A stretch of 64,000 bases of DNA. Source: a virus (taxonomy: Duplodnaviria > Heunggongvirae > Uroviricota > Caudoviricetes). The stretch lies in IMG/VR virus record IMGVR_UViG_3300012996_000001, positions 1-64,000 of that record; one strand, written 5' to 3'. A program made the position numbers and the translations under genes. Below the pieces are notes generated by a model, which saw only the letters and a program-made list of their open reading frames with translations, searched no databases and had not been told where the DNA came from. Shown here in pieces: positions 12,322-53,355 of this stretch. Within the stretch, counting starts at the first letter, position 1. Every line of letters starts with the position of its first letter.

Positions 12322-12743
12322 GTCCGGGAGGTGTATTGTGGTTAGTTTTAGCTGCGTTGGCGTTGTTTGGGTGGACTTATATCAGTAAAATACACCCGCT
12401 AGTTATGACTCGACCTCCGGTGAAGAAAATTCTCGAATTGGTTTCTTGCCAGGATGGTTTTTGCATTGATGATAACCCAGCAGACAAGAGTTGTGATTTC
12501 ATCTTGCACGACACGGTGACCGCCGCTAAGACAGAGATAACGCGAGATTGTTTTTCTGGACATATTCTTTTCGAAGGTGACTTTGATTGGATGAACCAGT
12601 TCGAAAGAAAACGGCTGCATGATGTTCTGTGCAAAATCCATAAGGATCGCGTTTCAAAATACCAAGAAGCTTGTCGTGTGGAGAAAAAGGCCAGCGATGA
12701 AAGAAATCGTGAGGCTGCAATTAAAATTTACGAAAACCGTTGA
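12318..12743 (+). CDS. hypothetical membrane-anchored protein (141 aa)
   Basis: N-terminal TM segment; overlaps the ligase stop. Confidence 0.4.
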   Translation: MSPGGVLWLVLAALALFGWTYISKIHPLVMTRPPVKKILELVSCQDGFCIDDNPADKSCDFILHDTVTAAKTEITRDCFSGHILFEGDFDWMNQFERKRLHDVLCKIHKDRVSKYQEACRVEKKASDERNREAAIKIYENR

Positions 12744-12767
12744 CAGTTTGAAGGGGTCGTGTAGAAT
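12740..12767 (+). promoter_or_regulatory. promoter TTGACAGT-N16-TAGAATGA
   Basis: Nearly identical to the nrdB promoter at 27558-27585. Confidence 0.45.
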
Positions 12768-27546: not shown

Positions 27547-27557
27547 TTCTGAGACTA

Positions 27558-27585
27558 TTGACAGTCTTCAGGATAGTTGTAGAAT
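27558..27585 (+). promoter_or_regulatory. promoter TTGACAGT-N16-TAGAATGA upstream of nrdB
   Basis: The -10 overlaps the track's ATG at 27584, so the real nrdB start is 27614. Confidence 0.5.
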
Positions 27586-32382: not shown

Positions 32383-33249
32383 ATGGAAGAAGATGATGTA
32401 ATGCTTGATCCGGTGTACAAAGGTAATGTTTGGTGTACACCTCAGGAGAGGAAAGACTGGAGAGTATACCTGACTGATCTTGTTAGTGACCCGCGAAATC
32501 ACATAGAAGGTTTGGATATCATCCGCCAGGCGGGTGAAGATGACGTCGTCGAGATCCTGATAACTTCCCCAGGCGGTAATATCGACCTGGCGGACATGTA
32601 CGTGGCGGCTATGGCAGACAGTAGAGCGAAGATCATTACCCGGGCGATTGGCCTGTGTGCTAGTGCCGCTACTACTATCTTTTTATCGGGCGATGAAAGG
32701 GTGTGCGATCCCGGCTGCTATTTCATGTTCCACAATGTGCAATTCACCAACTCAGGCGGCGATGCGGCCAACGTCTTTGGCAGCGCGAAGTTTTACGAGC
32801 GTCTTTTCAAAGAGAAGTATTACGGGCTTATGTCAGAAGTCCTTACCGAGGATGAGCTTTCTGAGTTATTCGACAGGGCAGGGGAGATTTATCTGACAGG
32901 TCGAGAAATGGAAGAACGATTTACTGCTGTTGACACAGCAAGTCAAACTCCGTCCTATACGGACATTGTTCTGGGAAATGTCGAAAGCCCGGTAACTCTG
33001 CCTTTCAAGCAGATAGAAGTTCCTTTGGCTACGCAGTTTGAATCGAGAGACGACTTCGATATTACGTTAGAGTGTGGGTACAGTAAAACTCTACGTCTAG
33101 GGTCTATACATCCGAAGGATTTTGATGAGTTTAACATGGAAGAGATCCTAGAGATTGGAGACTGCTTTGGTATCGACCTCGACGGATTGACTAGGTCGCA
33201 GGCACTTGAAGATCTGGTCAGCGCAATCCTGAATGGAGGTGGTCGTTAA
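32383..33249 (+). CDS. ClpP-family (S14-like) serine protease homologue
   Basis: ITSPGGNIDLADMYV...GLCASAATTIF...MFHNV matches the ClpP pattern (NSPGG...G.AASMG...MIHQP). Candidate Ser and His catalytic residues are present. Confidence 0.5.
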   Translation: MEEDDVMLDPVYKGNVWCTPQERKDWRVYLTDLVSDPRNHIEGLDIIRQAGEDDVVEILITSPGGNIDLADMYVAAMADSRAKIITRAIGLCASAATTIFLSGDERVCDPGCYFMFHNVQFTNSGGDAANVFGSAKFYERLFKEKYYGLMSEVLTEDELSELFDRAGEIYLTGREMEERFTAVDTASQTPSYTDIVLGNVESPVTLPFKQIEVPLATQFESRDDFDITLECGYSKTLRLGSIHPKDFDEFNMEEILEIGDCFGIDLDGLTRSQALEDLVSAILNGGGR

Positions 33250-33765: not shown

Positions 33766-33791
33766 AGGTCACCTTCGGGTGGCCTTTTTTG
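33766..33791 (+). terminator. rho-independent terminator
   Basis: AGGTCACC-TTCG-GGTGGCCT followed by T6. A TTGACA-N16-TATACT promoter follows directly at 33792-33819. Confidence 0.6.
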
Positions 33792-33840
33792 TTGACAGGG
33801 CTAACTGGCCGTGTATACTTCTCTCAACAAAGGAGATTAC

Positions 33841-37744: not shown

Positions 37745-38239
37745 ATGGAAAACTTGATGATCCCGGGTGAGTTGGCCCGGGCATTGAGCATAGACTACCA
37801 CAGGACTTTCCTGTGTGTACGTTGGGCAGAATCGCATATCGCGGAAGGGAAGATAGACGACTATGGAGGACAGGCTAAGGAGGTTGTTGAGGGAATTTAT
37901 GTCCGGCTAGAGTCTAATCACTTGGAGTACGATGTCAAAGAAGGTAAAATTATAAATTTAAGCCAAGGGATTTTAAAGAATTATCTTGAGGATATCTCCA
38001 AGCCAAAGGGAGAAGAATTGTCACTCTTCCGATTGTGTGAACCTCAGGAATATGATAGACTTTGTAAAGAAGCATCAAAGTACAGTATGATTTTTAGTAG
38101 GCCCCACAGTTGTATGTTGCATTACATAATTCAAGAGAAGCTTTGTTCGGGTTGTAATTCGATCCGCAGTCGTGTTAACTACGATACGGGAAGTGAGTGG
38201 AAATATTTTTGCGGACGAGGCCCACGCTGCTGTCCGTAA
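37745..38239 (+). CDS. hypothetical Cys-rich protein
   Basis: GGAGG RBS. C-terminal CSGC...CGRGPRCC. Confidence 0.4.
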   Translation: MENLMIPGELARALSIDYHRTFLCVRWAESHIAEGKIDDYGGQAKEVVEGIYVRLESNHLEYDVKEGKIINLSQGILKNYLEDISKPKGEELSLFRLCEPQEYDRLCKEASKYSMIFSRPHSCMLHYIIQEKLCSGCNSIRSRVNYDTGSEWKYFCGRGPRCCP

Positions 38240-39774: not shown

Positions 39775-39779
39775 CACAG

Positions 39780-39814
39780 GTCGGCTACCGTAAGGTGGTC
39801 GGCCTTTTTCTTTG
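39780..39814 (+). terminator. rho-independent terminator
   Basis: An 11-bp stem with three G-U pairs, GTAA loop and a TTTTTCTTT tail. Confidence 0.5.
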
Positions 39815-39822
39815 GGGGTTTT

Positions 39823-40167
39823 ATGACTCAGGTGGGTATTTTCTTTAAGGGTGCGTTACCGGATGTGACTAAACTACCGCCCAGTGCAGAGAGAGGAGAT
39901 GCCTACTTGGTCGGCGGGGTGACCTACGCCTACATGAACGGAACGTGGTTGCAACTAGGGGCTCAATTGAACAATTTTTTCCAAAACAATTTGTGTTACT
40001 CAGGGGTAGCTGTTACTCTACTTTCAGAAAATGACTTAGAGTCTTTGTTCATCTGCCCAATCGATTTGTCGGAAGAAGATCTGGAGTTTTTCAAGATCAC
40101 CTACCCGGAAGATTACCGTACATTTGAGTATCTCTGGAAAGGGGCGGATAAGGTAAGGGTTGCATAA
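39823..40167 (+). CDS. paralog family member 1 (114 aa)
   Basis: C-terminal module EDLEFFKITYPEDYRTFEYLW. Confidence 0.45.
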   Translation: MTQVGIFFKGALPDVTKLPPSAERGDAYLVGGVTYAYMNGTWLQLGAQLNNFFQNNLCYSGVAVTLLSENDLESLFICPIDLSEEDLEFFKITYPEDYRTFEYLWKGADKVRVA

Positions 40168-40189
40168 AACATAAAGAGGGTAACGGTAA

Positions 40190-40702
40190 GTGAGAAAATC
40201 AACTGAAGAGATATCGAGAGAAGTCTTTGGAAAGGGAGCCAGGATGCTGGGATGGAAAAGTTGGTTCGTATTCCAGCCTTTTTTCAAAGAGATAGAAAAA
40301 CATGTTGCCAAGTCTAAAGAAGTAGGTTCCAGAAAGGACATGCTGATGAAAGGTGGCGTCAGCGCCAGCCACTTCGATGGAAAAGGTATTTATCTCAAAC
40401 TAGATAGCGAAAACGGGGACCTCGTATACTTCTCATTACCGGGGTCGTACAATGCCGAATTGTTAGTATATGCAGAGGATAGTGTTTATTGTCCAAGTAA
40501 AGACATTAAAAAGCCCTTGGGTAATATTTTCGATGACCCTCAGAAACCCAGCTTTGAAGAGTTGGATGCTTTCACCGTAATCTACGGGAATGAAGATGTA
40601 TTGTTGGACATCGCTCATGAATTTTTACCTGCAATAATTGCATTCAATAAATCGGCTGTTAAAAACAGCTTGTCTGTACAGTGGCTGGAGAAATGGTTCT
40701 GA
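40190..40702 (+). CDS. paralog family member 2 (170 aa)
   Basis: GTG start. C-terminal EELDAFTVIYGNEDVLLDIAHEF. Confidence 0.4.
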   Translation: MRKSTEEISREVFGKGARMLGWKSWFVFQPFFKEIEKHVAKSKEVGSRKDMLMKGGVSASHFDGKGIYLKLDSENGDLVYFSLPGSYNAELLVYAEDSVYCPSKDIKKPLGNIFDDPQKPSFEELDAFTVIYGNEDVLLDIAHEFLPAIIAFNKSAVKNSLSVQWLEKWF

Positions 40703-41151
40703 TGACGGATATCAAAGAGACTATCGAGAAGTTAGCTACAGATTGGACTTGGACTGCTGTAAAGGAACATAGAAATCGACATGTGCTGATAAAGGTGCGG
40801 CGTTTCAGAAGCTTGACGGTTAAAGTACCCCATGAGTTTGGGGAGCAGCACTTCGATATTCGGCATGAACCCGAGAAAGGGAAGCATGACCTTAGGATAT
40901 GGACAAAAACTCAAGGTGGCCTTTTGCAGTGGAGGACATGCCCGGTAAAAGGAGATAGATTAGTGTACGTTAAATTTGGGGGACAACCTGAGAAAGAAAA
41001 GGTCGCCTTGGAGGACATCTTCTTGGATCCTCTGCATGTCGACGAAGGTGAGGTGGAGTTTTTCAAGGTCATGTACCCTGACTTGGTAAAACTCCTTCGA
41101 CTTTTTTCTCAGGCTGTTGATTTGGTAGATCAAAAAATAGAGGACGACTAA
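40702..41151 (+). CDS. paralog family member 3
   Basis: N-terminal LATDWTW. C-terminal EGEVEFFKVMYPDLVKLLRLF. Confidence 0.45.
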   Translation: MTDIKETIEKLATDWTWTAVKEHRNRHVLIKVRRFRSLTVKVPHEFGEQHFDIRHEPEKGKHDLRIWTKTQGGLLQWRTCPVKGDRLVYVKFGGQPEKEKVALEDIFLDPLHVDEGEVEFFKVMYPDLVKLLRLFSQAVDLVDQKIEDD

Positions 41152-41179
41152 ATGAACAGTAATATTCTTGTAAAATCTC

Positions 41180-41452
41180 TTGACGGAACGGTGCACAGGG
41201 CCTGTTGGAACACCAGGTCCGCCCGGCAGGGAAACAGTCTACTGTTCTATGGTTTACTGTGGTATAGAATTCGAAGTGAGGATATATCCGGCAAGTAAAC
41301 AATATTTCGAGGACCTTGATAACATAACCGGTGACGAGTTGGACTTCTTAAAGGTCATGTGTCAAGAAGATTTTGACGCCATACGTGAATCGTGGGCGGT
41401 AGCTTGGACAAAGAAGAAAGCCTTTGAGGCTTTTGATAGAGGGGAATTTTAA
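41180..41452 (+). CDS. paralog family member 4, collagen-like GPVGTPGPPGRE
   Basis: TTG start. C-terminal GDELDFLKVMCQEDFDAIRESW. An ATG at 41152 lies in another frame. Confidence 0.4.
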   Translation: MTERCTGPVGTPGPPGRETVYCSMVYCGIEFEVRIYPASKQYFEDLDNITGDELDFLKVMCQEDFDAIRESWAVAWTKKKAFEAFDRGEF

Positions 41453-41453
41453 G

Positions 41454-41879
41454 ATGGGTTGGATTAATAGTCATAATCCCAATCAGATCGTGGTCCCTTA
41501 CTTGCCGACCCCTGCGGATCCGGTGTCACTTTATCAGCAGAGAAAAAAGATTGAGGAAGCTATGTCAGCGACAAGTATAAGCACCGGGCTTGTTAGAAAC
41601 GCACCTGATGTAAGGACTGCGATGGAATCTTGGAATGACATTGTCAAAAAAGTAAATGGTGACAGAAACACACCCAAGAAAAGATCTCTAACTTACAAAG
41701 GTCTGACTTTCTTCCCCCAGTTGAAAGAAGACTCTATGGAGTTCTTCGAAGAAAAGGAAATAAAAACAGAAGAAATTCAACTGCTTGAGATAACATTCCC
41801 GGAAGAGTATACCAAGCTTAAGAAAGCCTGGATGGAGGTTTACCTCCTTAAAATTGCATCGGAAGCTTTCGATAATTGA
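41454..41879 (+). CDS. paralog family member 5
   Basis: C-terminal EEIQLLEITFPEEYTKLKKAW. Confidence 0.4.
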   Translation: MGWINSHNPNQIVVPYLPTPADPVSLYQQRKKIEEAMSATSISTGLVRNAPDVRTAMESWNDIVKKVNGDRNTPKKRSLTYKGLTFFPQLKEDSMEFFEEKEIKTEEIQLLEITFPEEYTKLKKAWMEVYLLKIASEAFDN

Positions 41880-41936
41880 TTGACAGGGGTGTAGGTCGAC
41901 TGCTACAGTTAGCCTACACAAATTAAAGGGGGTTTT

Positions 41937-42098
41937 ATGGACAGATTTTGGATAATCTCGCTTTGTGGAGTATTAGCAGGGGCATTTGCAGCAGGCTTTG
42001 GAATGAATCTGTGGCAGTCTTGTGTAAATGGCCTTGTATTCGGCGCGATAGCTGTCTTAGCCATCTGGATCAAACGGAGGAGAAAGATTAATGGGTAA
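41937..42098 (+). CDS. small membrane peptide (53 aa)
   Basis: AAGGGGG RBS. Two TM segments. Confidence 0.3.
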   Translation: MDRFWIISLCGVLAGAFAAGFGMNLWQSCVNGLVFGAIAVLAIWIKRRRKING

Positions 42099-42384
42099 AT
42101 ACACACGCTGGTCAAGTCTGTTGGTGGAAGCTATGCGGCTCGACCTGCGGGAACAGTTCTTTTCCGGTAAAGAAGAATCACTTGACGAAGAGTGGGATTT
42201 GTTTGAAACTGTCGAGCCTGAAGCAGCGAGAATCCTATACGAGGACGTTTTGAAACCGAAGCTTGATGATCTGATTGAAGACCTCAAGTTCCAAAGAGTA
42301 ATGAACGCTTTCGCAGAGAAAAACGATCATCGTAAAGCCACGATGATGAAAATACAGCATAGTGCTGAAAAACTTAAATGGTAG
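42091..42384 (+). CDS. hypothetical protein (97 aa)
   Basis: ORF. Confidence 0.4.
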   Translation: MGKYTRWSSLLVEAMRLDLREQFFSGKEESLDEEWDLFETVEPEAARILYEDVLKPKLDDLIEDLKFQRVMNAFAEKNDHRKATMMKIQHSAEKLKW

Positions 42385-42394
42385 GAGACAAGAG

Positions 42395-42658
42395 ATGCAA
42401 CAAGGTACAAGAGAGTACACACTGATGATTGGTCAGCCTGCGTATGAAAAATCCGGGGAACGCTTTGCTGTATTTATGCACGATACGTATTATCCTAGCG
42501 GCGGGGCCAAAGATTTTATTGGCTTCGCAGACACACTGGCAGAAGCTTTAGAAATGGTTGAACAAAACAAAGACAATGTGGTATTAGGGCAGTACCATAT
42601 CGCCTCCTCCTCCACGATGAAAATTGTGGCTGAAGGCCAACTTGGGTGGGAAAACTGA
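42395..42658 (+). CDS. hypothetical protein
   Basis: ORF. Confidence 0.4.
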   Translation: MQQGTREYTLMIGQPAYEKSGERFAVFMHDTYYPSGGAKDFIGFADTLAEALEMVEQNKDNVVLGQYHIASSSTMKIVAEGQLGWEN

Positions 42659-42930
42659 TGGGCAAATTCTCATCCGTCTGCTTCATGGTGGTTGATCCTG
42701 ACACAGGCTTAGCCTCGAATGTTGGTTTTGCACCAGATTCAAAGGCCATGCTTAAGCTGGCCTATCCCGGTCTTCCTCGTGAGGTTTTCACAAGGCCAGA
42801 AATTATCAAAATGATGGACGAGTGCGATAACTTAACGGGCGCTCTCTATGTCATTGAGCCAAAAGAGGGTCTTCCTCTTATGGTAAATTCAACGCTCGAA
42901 AAGTTACTTGAGGAGTTAGAAAGTGAATAA
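42646..42930 (+). CDS. hypothetical protein (94 aa)
   Basis: ORF. Confidence 0.4.
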   Translation: MGKLMGKFSSVCFMVVDPDTGLASNVGFAPDSKAMLKLAYPGLPREVFTRPEIIKMMDECDNLTGALYVIEPKEGLPLMVNSTLEKLLEELESE

Positions 42931-43150
42931 GCTGATTGCTGTCTTTACACTGATTTTCCTGTTGGCGTTTAATGCCTCTGCGGCAGAAGAGAAACCAAAA
43001 GAGGCTTGTGCTGTCAGTTCCCCTGTCGCAGGGACTACAGTAATAGCTTGCCCGACGTACATCCTGACAAGAGACCCCGATGGGACGACCATTTGCCGGA
43101 TCATCCCTAGCAACCCTAACGTGTTCTGTAGCAAGGTAGAGGTAAAATAA
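42923..43150 (+). CDS. small secreted Cys-containing protein (75 aa)
   Basis: GTG start with signal peptide. Confidence 0.4.
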   Translation: MNKLIAVFTLIFLLAFNASAAEEKPKEACAVSSPVAGTTVIACPTYILTRDPDGTTICRIIPSNPNVFCSKVEVK

Positions 43151-43746
43151 TGCCTCAGAGCGATTCTAAGGCCCTTGGTCCTCTAGGCAAGGTGTTTGGA
43201 TGGCTTGGCCGTAAAAACCTCTTAAACTCGCGTATAGGGGCCTTACAGGGCGATCCTGAACCAGAGCCTGAGGTAAAGGTAGAAAAGAACTTGTTTCAAT
43301 CCTTCCGAGAGGCTTGTAACTCTGCCGGGTATGCAGGAAGCGATGTAAAGTTTACTGAAGACTTAAGATCGCTTTTTATCCGGTTTAGCCCTCCCTCTAA
43401 AAAGGGTGATACGGGGGCAACTGGGTCTCCGGGGGCACAAGGTTCCCGAGGTAAAGATGCCTTCGATAAGTTTGCTGTAAACTCTCGGGAAGAAACGATG
43501 ATGGCATTCTCTTGGAAGGGTGTGAGATTCGAAGCTCCGATCCCAAATGAGCATGTAGAAGGTTTCCCACACGGACCCCTTAAGCAGGACGATATCGATT
43601 TTATTGAGGTGGTCTATGGGACTAAGGTAATATCCCGGATGGCTACCTTCTGGCGTCGTGAATACGACTACAACGAAGACGTTAGTCTTTTTAAAGGAGA
43701 AAAGCGTGTCTCAAGAAAAAGAAATTCAGCCGTATCAACAGATTAA
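43150..43746 (+). CDS. paralog family member 6, collagen-like GDTGATGSPGAQGSRGKD
   Basis: C-terminal QDDIDFIEVVYGTKVISRMATFW. Confidence 0.45.
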   Translation: MPQSDSKALGPLGKVFGWLGRKNLLNSRIGALQGDPEPEPEVKVEKNLFQSFREACNSAGYAGSDVKFTEDLRSLFIRFSPPSKKGDTGATGSPGAQGSRGKDAFDKFAVNSREETMMAFSWKGVRFEAPIPNEHVEGFPHGPLKQDDIDFIEVVYGTKVISRMATFWRREYDYNEDVSLFKGEKRVSRKRNSAVSTD

Positions 43747-43897
43747 GTTCGTATCTGGAGACTTTGAAGGTCTTCTCGGCAAGACATTAGGCCCGGTATC
43801 TGCCGACGATGACGGTTGTAACTGGTACGTCGAAGTCTACATGGGGCAGAACAGGGTAGTTCGTGAAGTGGCCTTGGAAGATATTGCACCTCTTTAA
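43706..43897 (+). CDS. hypothetical protein
   Basis: GTG start with AGGAGAAAAG RBS. Confidence 0.35.
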   Translation: MSQEKEIQPYQQIKFVSGDFEGLLGKTLGPVSADDDGCNWYVEVYMGQNRVVREVALEDIAPL

Positions 43898-43918
43898 CCG
43901 CCTCCGGGCGGTTTTTTG
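43898..43918 (+). terminator. rho-independent terminator (CCGCC-TCCG-GGCGG-T6)
   Basis: Variant of the recurring terminator at 21512 and 27524. Confidence 0.6.
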
Positions 43919-43970
43919 TTGCATTCTGTTTTTGACAGGTGTAATCTTAGAAAATAACTAAGGAGGACTT

Positions 43971-44159
43971 ATGAGAGATCCAGAAGACATGCATTATCCC
44001 ATGTGGGAAGCTATCCGTATGGAGGCCAATCACTTGGTAGTTTTTGAAGGTATGCCCGCCCGGGTTAAGATGGACATAAGCTTTGTCGATACAGCTATCC
44101 GTAGGACAGGGGTGTTCTCAAAACCGTTGCGAACTATGGCGTGCTGGATTGAAGAATAA
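43971..44159 (+). CDS. hypothetical protein (62 aa)
   Basis: AAGGAGG RBS. Confidence 0.4.
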   Translation: MRDPEDMHYPMWEAIRMEANHLVVFEGMPARVKMDISFVDTAIRRTGVFSKPLRTMACWIEE

Positions 44160-44193
44160 GTTGAAGAATTCAAGAAATACCAAGGGGTGAAAG

Positions 44194-44415
44194 GTGAAGC
44201 TTAAGTGTGTGCGTGTGATAAGCGATTACAACAAGGTTTTCCCGGTAGGCGAGGTATACGAAGCCAGTGAGCTTAAGCATGGCTTCTGCGACGTGACGGG
44301 ATACCGACCCAAACGTAACGGATCCTGTTGGACAGGTGTACTGTCCTTGGGCCATGTGGTTGTATTGGGCGTGGCTAAATTCGAAATCGTGCCGGAGGTT
44401 CAGGATGCAGGTTGA
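44194..44415 (+). CDS. hypothetical protein (73 aa)
   Basis: GTG start. Confidence 0.35.
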   Translation: MKLKCVRVISDYNKVFPVGEVYEASELKHGFCDVTGYRPKRNGSCWTGVLSLGHVVVLGVAKFEIVPEVQDAG

Positions 44416-44941
44416 AGACTTTAAAAGAGAGCAGTTCAAGTCTCTCATGAAGGAACTTACCACCGACTGGACTTGGGCAAATATCCAGCAGCTACCTGGA
44501 GTAGAGAAGCTGGTACGTACAGAGACTGGCCGTTACCGCCGGGACATGCGGACTTCTTTTACTCCGAAGGCGGGATACACCCTTAAATTTGAACTGGGGC
44601 ATGGATCGATGGCTAGCTCGTGCAGTGACAACAAACCCCGTATGGTTATTCGCCGACGGGCCAAAAACCAATATGATGAAAAACTCGTGGTGCAGTGGGA
44701 GGCCGACCACGACAAGGGCCTTTGGATACGCGTCCATAATGAGTTCGTATCAAAGCCTCATCGCTGTCTGGTAAACGTCCAAGAATTCTTTATGGACCCT
44801 TGCGATGTGCAGGATTCCGAGATAGACTTCATGAACACACTATACCCAGACATCTTTTACGCTTTGCCGTACCTGAGTGATTGGATCGCAGAATTGCCGG
44901 GTAAGCTGAGGTATGATGCAACCAAGGGTATTATTCTATGA
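44405..44941 (+). CDS. paralog family member 7
   Basis: N-terminal LTTDWTW (compare member 3). C-terminal DSEIDFMNTLYPDIFYALPYLSDW. Confidence 0.45.
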   Translation: MQVEDFKREQFKSLMKELTTDWTWANIQQLPGVEKLVRTETGRYRRDMRTSFTPKAGYTLKFELGHGSMASSCSDNKPRMVIRRRAKNQYDEKLVVQWEADHDKGLWIRVHNEFVSKPHRCLVNVQEFFMDPCDVQDSEIDFMNTLYPDIFYALPYLSDWIAELPGKLRYDATKGIIL

Positions 44942-45165
44942 AAGCCTGTAGAAGCGCTGAAAGATGGAAGGGCGATCAATACGGCATGGTACTTATGATA
45001 GTCAAAACCCCGCTTCTAAACCGGGCCATCCTCGTGCCAGCAGCGGTAAGGGACTTCCTGAAGGATGAAGACCCGGATTACTGGGTGCAGGGAGATTTCT
45101 CACTCTTACAGGTCGTGTTCCCAGAGTGGCACGACTACATTTTAAAAGAACTTGAAATAATTTAG
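44938..45165 (+). CDS. hypothetical protein (75 aa)
   Basis: ORF. Confidence 0.35.
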   Translation: MKACRSAERWKGDQYGMVLMIVKTPLLNRAILVPAAVRDFLKDEDPDYWVQGDFSLLQVVFPEWHDYILKELEII

Positions 45166-53000: not shown

Positions 53001-53355
53001 TCGTATGCACAGAAATGCATAAGTATTGTAAAGATTATTCAGGATTTCATGAGTTTACTGATTTAGACTTTATGCACATTTTATAGGTTGAGTCAACAGG
53101 GTTAAATCCTTCGTATAAGCCATCCTGAGCACAGTTAGGGTTGGGCAGTACCCTAGCCCATTTTGGCGGATATGTCGTTAATAAGCACTTTGCTGCATAG
53201 AATTGGATGAGAATAGATCGCATTTCCACAAAAGGGTAGTTTTAGGTTGGATTGTTGAATGATGGGTTACTACAGGTTGGGGGTGGCTGATCTGCCCACT
53301 TACCGTAGGCAAAGAAAAGCCCGCTCAAGGCGGGCCAGTCTCAGTATCTAATCTT

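Follow-up and report, generated by a model that had tools for sequence, protein, structure and literature searches.

We analysed a stretch of 64,000 nucleotides (nt), positions 1 to 64,000 of the IMG/VR virus record IMGVR_UViG_3300012996_000001, which is referred to below in its full length as the window. Its source is a large myovirus of the Vequintavirinae, distantly related to the Certrevirus phages CR3, CR9, phiTE and CB7, and its subject here is a tandem family of small genes. A preliminary description had singled out seven open reading frames (ORFs) between 39823 and 44941, numbered m1 to m7 below in genomic order, as paralogues with a common C-terminal module. All seven are present on the + strand with the peptides quoted for them in place, and on the comparisons set out below their C-terminal modules are homologous. 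The family itself proved larger than seven, however: two more genes belong to it (37745-38239 and 44938-45165), together with a borderline candidate (42091-42384). Judged by sequence, the window holds nine confident members and one probable member (Table 1), and no further ORF in it matches the family profile.

Table 1. Family members and associated features of the window, with PHROG matches (E-value) and whole-gene dN/dS ranges where available
Feature	Position	Strand	Description	PHROG match	dN/dS
Type D member	37745-38239	+	164 amino acids (aa); module 37973-38050 (LKNYLEDISKPKGEELSLFRLCEPQE); His/Cys-rich tail after module	phrog_12113	
Intrinsic-terminator-like hairpin	39778-39805	+	Strong; 12-bp stem and T run; ends 17 nt before m1 start codon		
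m1, type A	39823-40167	+	114 aa; GDAY..W..G motif 39895-39960, beta-hairpin, module 40036-40116	phrog_13666 (3e-25)	0.16-0.26
m2, type C	40190-40702	+	170 aa; module 40517-40594; predicted globular alpha/beta fold	phrog_12009 (1.5e-38)	0.06-0.09
m3, type B	40702-41151	+	149 aa; N-terminal LATDWTW helix; module 41008-41085; start codon overlaps m2 stop	phrog_12686 (1.9e-44)	0.05-0.10
m4, type A	41152-41452	+	Frame-disrupted in the window; module 41297-41371	phrog_19834 (3e-20)	0.06-0.10 (C-terminal 67 aa)
m5, type A	41454-41879	+	141 aa; hairpin LTYKGLTFF, then module 41736-41807	phrog_21419 (2.8e-15)	0.11-0.14
Probable, borderline member	42091-42384	+	97 aa; module-like stretch 42148-42225 (REQFFSGKEESLDEEWDLFETVEPEA); family profile E 0.0098		
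m6, type A2	43150-43746	+	198 aa; N-terminal helices, six Gly-X-Y triplets 43405-43458, hairpin, module 43555-43626, long helix	phrog_16086 (1e-32)	0.15-0.19
m7, type B	44405-44941	+	178 aa; N-terminal LTTDWTW; module 44777-44854	phrog_12307 (4e-14); phrog_12686 (1.2e-6)	0.05-0.06
Minimal type-A-like member	44938-45165	+	75 aa; module 45046-45129; ATG overlaps m7 stop		
ClpP-like gene	32383-33249	+	~6.5 kb upstream of the family cluster		
Interleaved genes	42395-42658; 42923-43150		Two genes lying among the family members		
Early-promoter consensus sites	12738-12767; 27556-27585; 33790-33819	+			
Early-promoter consensus site	53069-53098	-			

Membership and homology of the family

The module follows the consensus h-x-x-h-F-x-D-P-x-x-h-[ST]-x-[DE]-E-h-x-h-[FL]-x-h-h-Y-[PG], laid out as the end of a hydrophobic strand, F-x-D-P, an [ST]-x-[DE]-E cap, a helix (h-x-h-[FL]-x-h-h-Y-[PG]) and a second helix. 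It had been described as an element of 20-25 residues with which each ORF ends; it is indeed common to all seven, but it is longer than this and stops 16-39 residues short of the stop codon.

Against a within-window background of 468 six-frame ORFs, a strict regular expression of the motif as first described matched m1, m3 and m7, compared with a mean of 0.002 matches in 500 shuffles. Leave-one-out profile hidden Markov models (HMMs) ranked the held-out member first among the 468 for six of the seven (E 3.9e-8 to 0.066). The remaining member, m2, failed when sequences from the window alone were used (E 1.6), and both m2 and m6 were recovered via their orthologues. An HMM from the seven modules, applied to the window and eight related loci, retrieved 42 ORFs at E<0.01 on the first pass and 57 after iteration, every one on the coding strand, and matched 0 of 5,310 shuffled decoys. 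Building a profile from the seven C-termini, the check that the preliminary description had called for, therefore yields a significant family model.

Single-linkage BLAST clustering of 136 family proteins separated type A (m1, m4 and m5), type A2 (m6), type B (m3 and m7), type C (m2), type D (37745-38239) and a small group, type E, which is absent from the window. Profile-profile alignment with hhalign joined these types. B and C aligned at 96.2% (E 2.4e-9) over 142 columns, almost their full length, A and B at 95.7% (E 9e-9) over 49 columns, and A and A2 at 94.9% over 73 columns; A-C reached 81%, A-D 80%, and A-E and B-E ~92%, with all column-reversed controls below 1%. The newly added genes were placed in the same way. 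The type D gene (iterated family HMM E 6.2e-5) belongs to an orthologue group that aligns with type A at 80% (E 1.4e-5), and the orthologue group of the minimal gene at 44938 (CR3 gp171, CR9 gp190 and others) does so at 93.7% (E 1.9e-7; reversed control 0.6%). For the group of the borderline gene, alignment with types A, B and E gave 43-73% (E 3e-5 to 2.4e-4; reversed controls <0.4%). Together the family HMM and the hhalign results support the view of these genes as paralogues that stand in tandem and have diversified, keeping the C-terminal module in common while their N-terminal parts vary.

Some relationships are visible without profiles. In BLASTP, m1 matched m3 (E 3e-4) and m5 matched m4 (E 2.7e-5), and the paralogy of m3 and m7 extends over their full length (E 1e-9 across 161 aa). 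The N-terminal motif said to be common to this last pair reads LTTDWTW in m7 as claimed, but LATDWTW in m3. Start codons at 40702 (m3), 41454 (m5) and 44405 (m7, set from P0034) were assigned from orthologue N-termini, which also support the GTG at 40190 as the start of m2; that of the type D gene was set from P0045. The m5 protein is identical to P0001, and its N-terminal half is poorly conserved among orthologues.

At the DNA level, the modules of m1 (40072-40109) and m3 (41044-41081) are identical at 30 of 38 positions (79%), compared with 61% for other pairs, which may reflect shared codon choice or local gene conversion. DNA repeats or recent gene conversion were rejected as the source of the motif, since only m1 and m3 share this 38-nt stretch and the likeness is otherwise at the protein level.

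PHROGs keeps the same proteins as at least eight separate families, and neither the unifying fold nor the A-E architecture is recorded there. The eight counterparts given in Table 1 are all of 'unknown function' (E 1e-14 to 1e-44), and cross-matches occur among them: m4 and m5 match phrog_13666, 21419, 30227 and 19834, and m3 matches the family of m7. Pfam holds no matching family, and no Pfam domain exceeded its threshold in the members or in ten distant relatives scanned, the weak matches being to Collagen and Perm-CXXC only. Our literature search found no description of the family, and six of these PHROG identifiers are uncited in the literature searched.

The fold of the shared element

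AlphaFold2 models were computed for m2 and m6 as monomers. The m2 model, built with 20 orthologues, is globular (predicted local distance difference test score, pLDDT, 88; predicted TM-score, pTM, 0.84), with a pair of helices at either terminus and a sheet of six to seven strands. Within it the module takes up a strand (residues 106-111), a loop (112-121, NIFDDPQKPS), a helix (122-132, FEELDAFTVIY) and a further helix (136-157), at pLDDT ~90. For m6, modelled with 39 type-A sequences, the C-terminal 70 residues (~111-180) reach pLDDT 93-97; the model contains a hairpin (115-122/125-132), a short helix, a helix at 146-156 (DDIDFIEVVYG) and a long helix at 158-195. The Gly-X-Y segment of the same model has pLDDT <50, and its N-terminal helices score 56-78. 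Compared by order of secondary-structure elements, the motif forms a like element in both models, strand-loop-helix-helix in m2 and hairpin-helix-helix in m6.

Among the BFVD matches of the m2 model were the phiTE protein K9L3T6 (TM-score ~0.4), whose 149 aa equal the m3 orthologue phiTE_123 in length, a CR9 protein of 162 aa (E 2e-3) and, from a Seunavirus, a protein matched at probability 0.99 and TM 0.57; B-type proteins were linked to the model at TM 0.4-0.46. No PDB chain was credibly matched by the family profile, though the PDB copy searched includes at least one phiTE baseplate structure; the PDB sequence matches obtained with this profile and with the type-A protein P0065 were discarded as chance, among them a spurious match to an antibody heavy-chain variable (VH) framework at E 0.04.

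According to these models, the shared element is the C-terminal core of one folded domain, made up of the last hairpin strand, the F-x-D-P..[ST]-x-[DE]-E loop and N-cap, a first helix ending in Y-[PG], and a second helix. We read the motif as a fold core and not as a disordered tag because it falls in strands and helices in the confident m2 and m6 models, where the conserved positions would fit a buried F, a D-P turn, an [ST]-x-x-E helix cap and a Y-[PG] helix end. Types B, C, D and E are globular alpha/beta proteins of 150-170 aa that are completed by this core. Type A (m1, m4, m5, m6 and the gene at 44938) has kept only the hairpin and helices of the fold, which follow a tail-fibre-type cassette made of a GDxY..W..G motif and 4-9 Gly-X-Y triplets. 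We infer that the module is a folding scaffold rather than a recognition tag, and that it is possibly an oligomerisation scaffold as well.

Collagen-like runs, distribution and possible roles

Gly-X-Y runs had been reported for m4 and m6. Both are present, and these are the only ORFs in the window with at least four triplets (six in m6, GDTGATGSPGAQGSRGKD; four in m4, GPVGTPGPPGRE), but the m4 run is out of frame with the conserved N-terminus of its gene. This N-terminus, MNSNILVKSLDGTVHRA, begins at the ATG at 41152 in one frame, and the run (41198-41233) and the module lie in the frame of 41180-41452, the run being upstream of the first in-frame ATG (41249). Since the two parts occupy different frames, a 1-nt indel inside the Gly-X-Y-coding stretch is indicated; the break (41152-41260) could be a real mutation or an assembly error, or the internal ATG at 41249 could be in use. 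Intact m4 orthologues have 112-122 aa (L009-L012), and the Gly-X-Y region of m4 differs strongly in length and sequence among close relatives. Across the family, all 16 full-length m6-type proteins carry 5-9 triplets and 11 of the 45 type-A proteins carry 3-9, and there are none in types B, C, D or E.

In several type-A proteins (e.g. CR3 gp189 and P0065) the triplets are directly preceded by a GDxY..W..G motif, which m1 has without any triplets. This arrangement recalls collagen-containing tail fibres (GDxY..W..G, then Gly-X-Y; phrog_3904; PF01391), to which the type A N-terminal cassette is homologous. The first 60 aa of P0065 matched 236 phage records; most of the matches listed carry a tail-fibre annotation, and they include a phiTE gene at another genomic location that is labelled 'virion structural protein'. 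The m1 N-terminus matched phrog_3904 weakly (E 1.4e-3). The homology is limited to this cassette, and the module occurs in no long protein among 1.84e9 representatives. Type A is a chimera: its N-terminal part is a cassette homologous to tail fibres, and its C-terminal part corresponds to the hairpin-helix half of the family fold.

The explanation we favour, with moderate confidence, is that these genes form a superfamily specific to one lineage, the Certrevirus-like Vequintavirinae phages, whose products are small accessory proteins that are not part of the virion; the window has at least nine of the paralogues. Tandem duplication and domain shuffling would have generated the set, and type A would have originated when a tail-fibre-type cassette was joined upstream of the hairpin-helix core. 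Collagen repeats are in general established trimerisation elements, and type-A proteins may form homotrimers ('mini-fibres') that present three copies of the C-terminal domain. Inside the infected cell, the paralogues may serve host takeover or counter-defence as a diversified set of binding proteins that differ in their surfaces. In large virulent phages, small 'hypothetical' genes come in blocks, and some have proved to be host-takeover or anti-defence factors. Non-structural accessory proteins on a common scaffold remain our best guess, and a host-interaction or anti-defence role can be inferred as a possibility.

Several findings weigh against this explanation. Trimerisation of type A is deduced from sequence type, the Gly-X-Y runs are short, m1 and m5 of the window have no such run, and that of m4 is frame-disrupted. 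With Pfam PF01391 (Collagen), m6 scored 14.9 bits and its best orthologues 19.8-21.8, under the 27.2-bit gathering threshold, as a result of the shortness of the runs. In hhalign, m6 joins the rest of the family through type A only. The evidence on virions comes from one related phage, and mass spectrometry can miss low-copy proteins.

The main rival is that type-A proteins are accessories of the tail fibre, either assembly chaperones or templates that co-trimerise with its collagen cassette, or low-copy virion decorations. SPP1 gp12 is reportedly a protein of the latter sort, a small collagen-like trimeric virion protein that decorates the capsid by binding its hexamers and lacks a C-terminal alpha/beta domain; on this description it shares with the present proteins a phage origin, a very small size, a short stretch of Gly-X-Y triplets and presumed trimerisation, and differs in an apparent lack of sequence relation to the family. 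The cassette homology, which extends to the phiTE 'virion structural protein' gene, fits such a role, as do the annotation of some orthologues as 'tail fiber protein' (PcCB7V) and a BFVD entry for PBES 02 named 'virion structural protein'. However, these annotations have no stated experimental basis, and RefSeq lists the PBES 02 protein as hypothetical. Tail fibres have 800-1,100 aa, whereas the family proteins have 75-200 aa, 0-9 triplets and a different end domain, and their genes sit among those for nucleotide metabolism, a long way from the structural module. The same fold is found without the cassette in types B, C, D and E. Furthermore, a virion proteome has been published for one Certrevirus only, CB7 (26 proteins by tandem mass spectrometry; PMC7344957 Table 4), and it contains none of the five orthologues (CB7_158, 164, 168, 169 and 174). 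A tail-fibre accessory role is on this balance unlikely.

The same idea also underlies a stronger version of the mini-fibre proposal, which we regard as equally doubtful. Type-A proteins would here be the first non-structural, intracellular collagen-like phage effectors, homotrimeric mini-fibres that captured the trimerisation cassette of the phage's own tail fibre and that would serve as multivalent inhibitors of a host factor or defence, or as regulators co-trimerising with the tail fibre; the remaining types (B, C, D and E) would represent ancestral monomers that act on different targets.

The preliminary description had instead suggested that the motif is a shared docking or degron tag, delivering variable N-terminal domains to one partner such as the ClpP-like protease or a host protein. 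An acidic and hydrophobic motif common to otherwise different proteins would suit a tag, and the ClpP-like gene lies on the same strand nearby. We nonetheless consider this improbable and do not uphold it, because the motif is structured (pLDDT ~90 in m2, 93-97 in m6) and internal, and the homology reaches well beyond it, B and C being alignable over nearly their whole length. The conserved positions are, moreover, those expected of a fold core, and ClpP-like genes also occur in relatives with one family member (ChuuTotoro and Kashira), with nothing tying the family to the ClpP-like gene. A terminal tag of another kind is known from the internal proteins of T4, whose common capsid-targeting sequence is N-terminal, linear and cleaved. 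The likeness is that several unrelated-looking small phage proteins share one short conserved terminal element; the difference is that here the element is internal to a folded C-terminal domain and the members were not detected in virions.

Beyond the window, an exhaustive HMMER search of 1.84 billion representative proteins gave 49 matches at E<=1e-3, all of 87-198 aa with the module in the C-terminal part, save one repetitive 619-aa false positive. Among 50,697 phage records, m3 was found in 33, m2 in 30 and m6 in 22, the carriers being Certrevirus, the A7_1/W70 clade of E. coli phages and a few others. By these searches the family is confined to Certrevirus-like Vequintavirinae. With m5, tblastn gave no match in the 50,697 phage records, though PHROG profiles match it. 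A word-indexed homologue search returned 3-30 matches, and a single-protein scan of viral contigs returned one locus; the word-indexed search is too insensitive here because the proteins are short and diverged. Copy number is 8-10 in Certrevirus, four in A7_1 and one in two Serratia phages, which keep type B.

This variation in copy number, from 1 to 10 between related phages, would suit the view that the copies are decaying duplicates or mis-called ORFs without function, as would the frame disruption of m4 and the lack of the gene at 44938 in close relatives. Selection argues otherwise. The ratio of nonsynonymous to synonymous substitution rates (dN/dS; whole-gene NG86 values against three close relatives, L009-L011, at 80-90% identity) was 0.05-0.26 for every comparable member, and the members are under purifying selection. 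Neighbouring genes gave 0.01-0.34, a range that includes the members, and the idea of a fast-evolving set is not borne out by this check. Against Certrevirus the members show 24-47% identity and several neighbours 50-76%, which places the family among the more diverged genes, not uniquely so. Synteny is kept between the window and these distant genomes, the start codons recur in orthologues, and adjacent genes are closely coupled at their junctions. Decay is therefore very improbable.

Chance or compositional likeness between acidic low-complexity C-termini of unrelated ORFs, for which the weakness of some pairwise BLAST comparisons (E 0.005 to >1 for several pairs) and the leave-one-out failure of m2 might be cited, is negligible in view of the decoy counts, the reversed profiles (<1% against 80-96%), the recurrence of the strict motif and the motif register kept across orthologues from different genera; the shuffled and reversed controls and the dN/dS values exclude chance and decay of non-functional copies.

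The analysis joins at least eight separately filed PHROG families of 'unknown function' into one superfamily with a new C-terminal fold that has no solved relative, and it offers a clear example of shuffled domains, a trimerisation cassette of the tail-fibre type having been fused to this fold among non-structural genes. With their domain boundaries defined, these 9-10 genes provide a target set in Certrevirus phages of Pectobacterium and Cronobacter, which are under biocontrol development. For phage biologists the target set and the cassette capture are of moderate interest, and wider significance is uncertain because the family is taxonomically narrow.

Genomic setting and further observations

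The family cluster forms the distal part of a long + strand nucleotide-metabolism block. Genes for a ligase, an exonuclease, thymidylate synthase, ribonucleotide reductase, the ClpP-like protease, a DNA methyltransferase, tRNA nucleotidyltransferase and a histidyl-tRNA synthetase (HisRS)-like protein lie on this strand at ~10-52 kb. Gene order is kept in CR3, where gp193, gp189-gp185, gp177, gp173 and gp171 are the counterparts of the window genes, and the best protein identity to Certrevirus is 24-76% over the region (~47% for m3). The family genes are packed as an operon: spacing from m1 to m5 is -1 to 22 nt, start and stop codons overlap or adjoin from m2 through m5, and the overlap of m7 with the gene at 44938 is ATGA. 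No promoter-like site lies between the terminator-like hairpin and the m1 start, so m1-m5 must be read by read-through or from an unrecognised promoter. One of the two interleaved genes is a homologue of the T4 Y07C family (PF26894, found on the orthologues in L009-L011), and the other encodes a 75-aa protein with a signal-peptide-like N-terminus (MNKLIAVFTLIFLLAFNASA).

Placement of the cluster in an early region, as first proposed, was not substantiated. The Certrevirus early promoter is sigma70-like, TGTTGAC-N17-TATAAT (PMC7344957). Allowing up to 2 mismatches, this consensus has five matches in the window, hardly above chance (mean of 1.6 in shuffles, with 3 of 100 reaching 5), and none of the five falls within 37.7-45.2 kb; early expression is for this reason not established. 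A generic promoter scan of 36-52 kb gave 31 promoter-like sites, against 21 (standard deviation 5) in shuffles.

By eye, the members show no signal peptide or membrane segment. A DNA-mimic role suggested by acidity was rejected, the members not being uniform in this respect (isoelectric points 4.3-8.6). The pseudo-ToxI locus of phiTE, which counters abortive infection, was considered as a candidate neighbour and set aside, because the text consulted does not place it with respect to the family genes.

The gene at 44938 has no orthologue in the closest relatives (L009-L011) and has counterparts in more distant Certrevirus, a pattern that points to recent loss or gain at this position. The tail of the type D protein reads PHSCMLHY..CSGC..YFCGRGPRCCP, and its orthologues keep HPHSCSIDYH..CSGxGC..PVNY; it is probably a zinc-binding element. 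The sole Pfam match of this member is a weak one, to Perm-CXXC (E 0.009).

In PBES 02, the m1-like and m2-like genes form one ORF of 331 aa (ADU18_0029; L013 3506-4501). Compared with CR3 gp189/gp188 (L001 6005-7001), the sole relevant difference is A4 in PBES 02 against A5 in CR3 in ATGAGAAAAAGCC, the place at which the 3' end of m1 contains the start of m2. The single ORF reflects either a sequencing error in the homopolymer or a fusion that occurs naturally, and in the latter case it would hint that A-type and C-type proteins work together.

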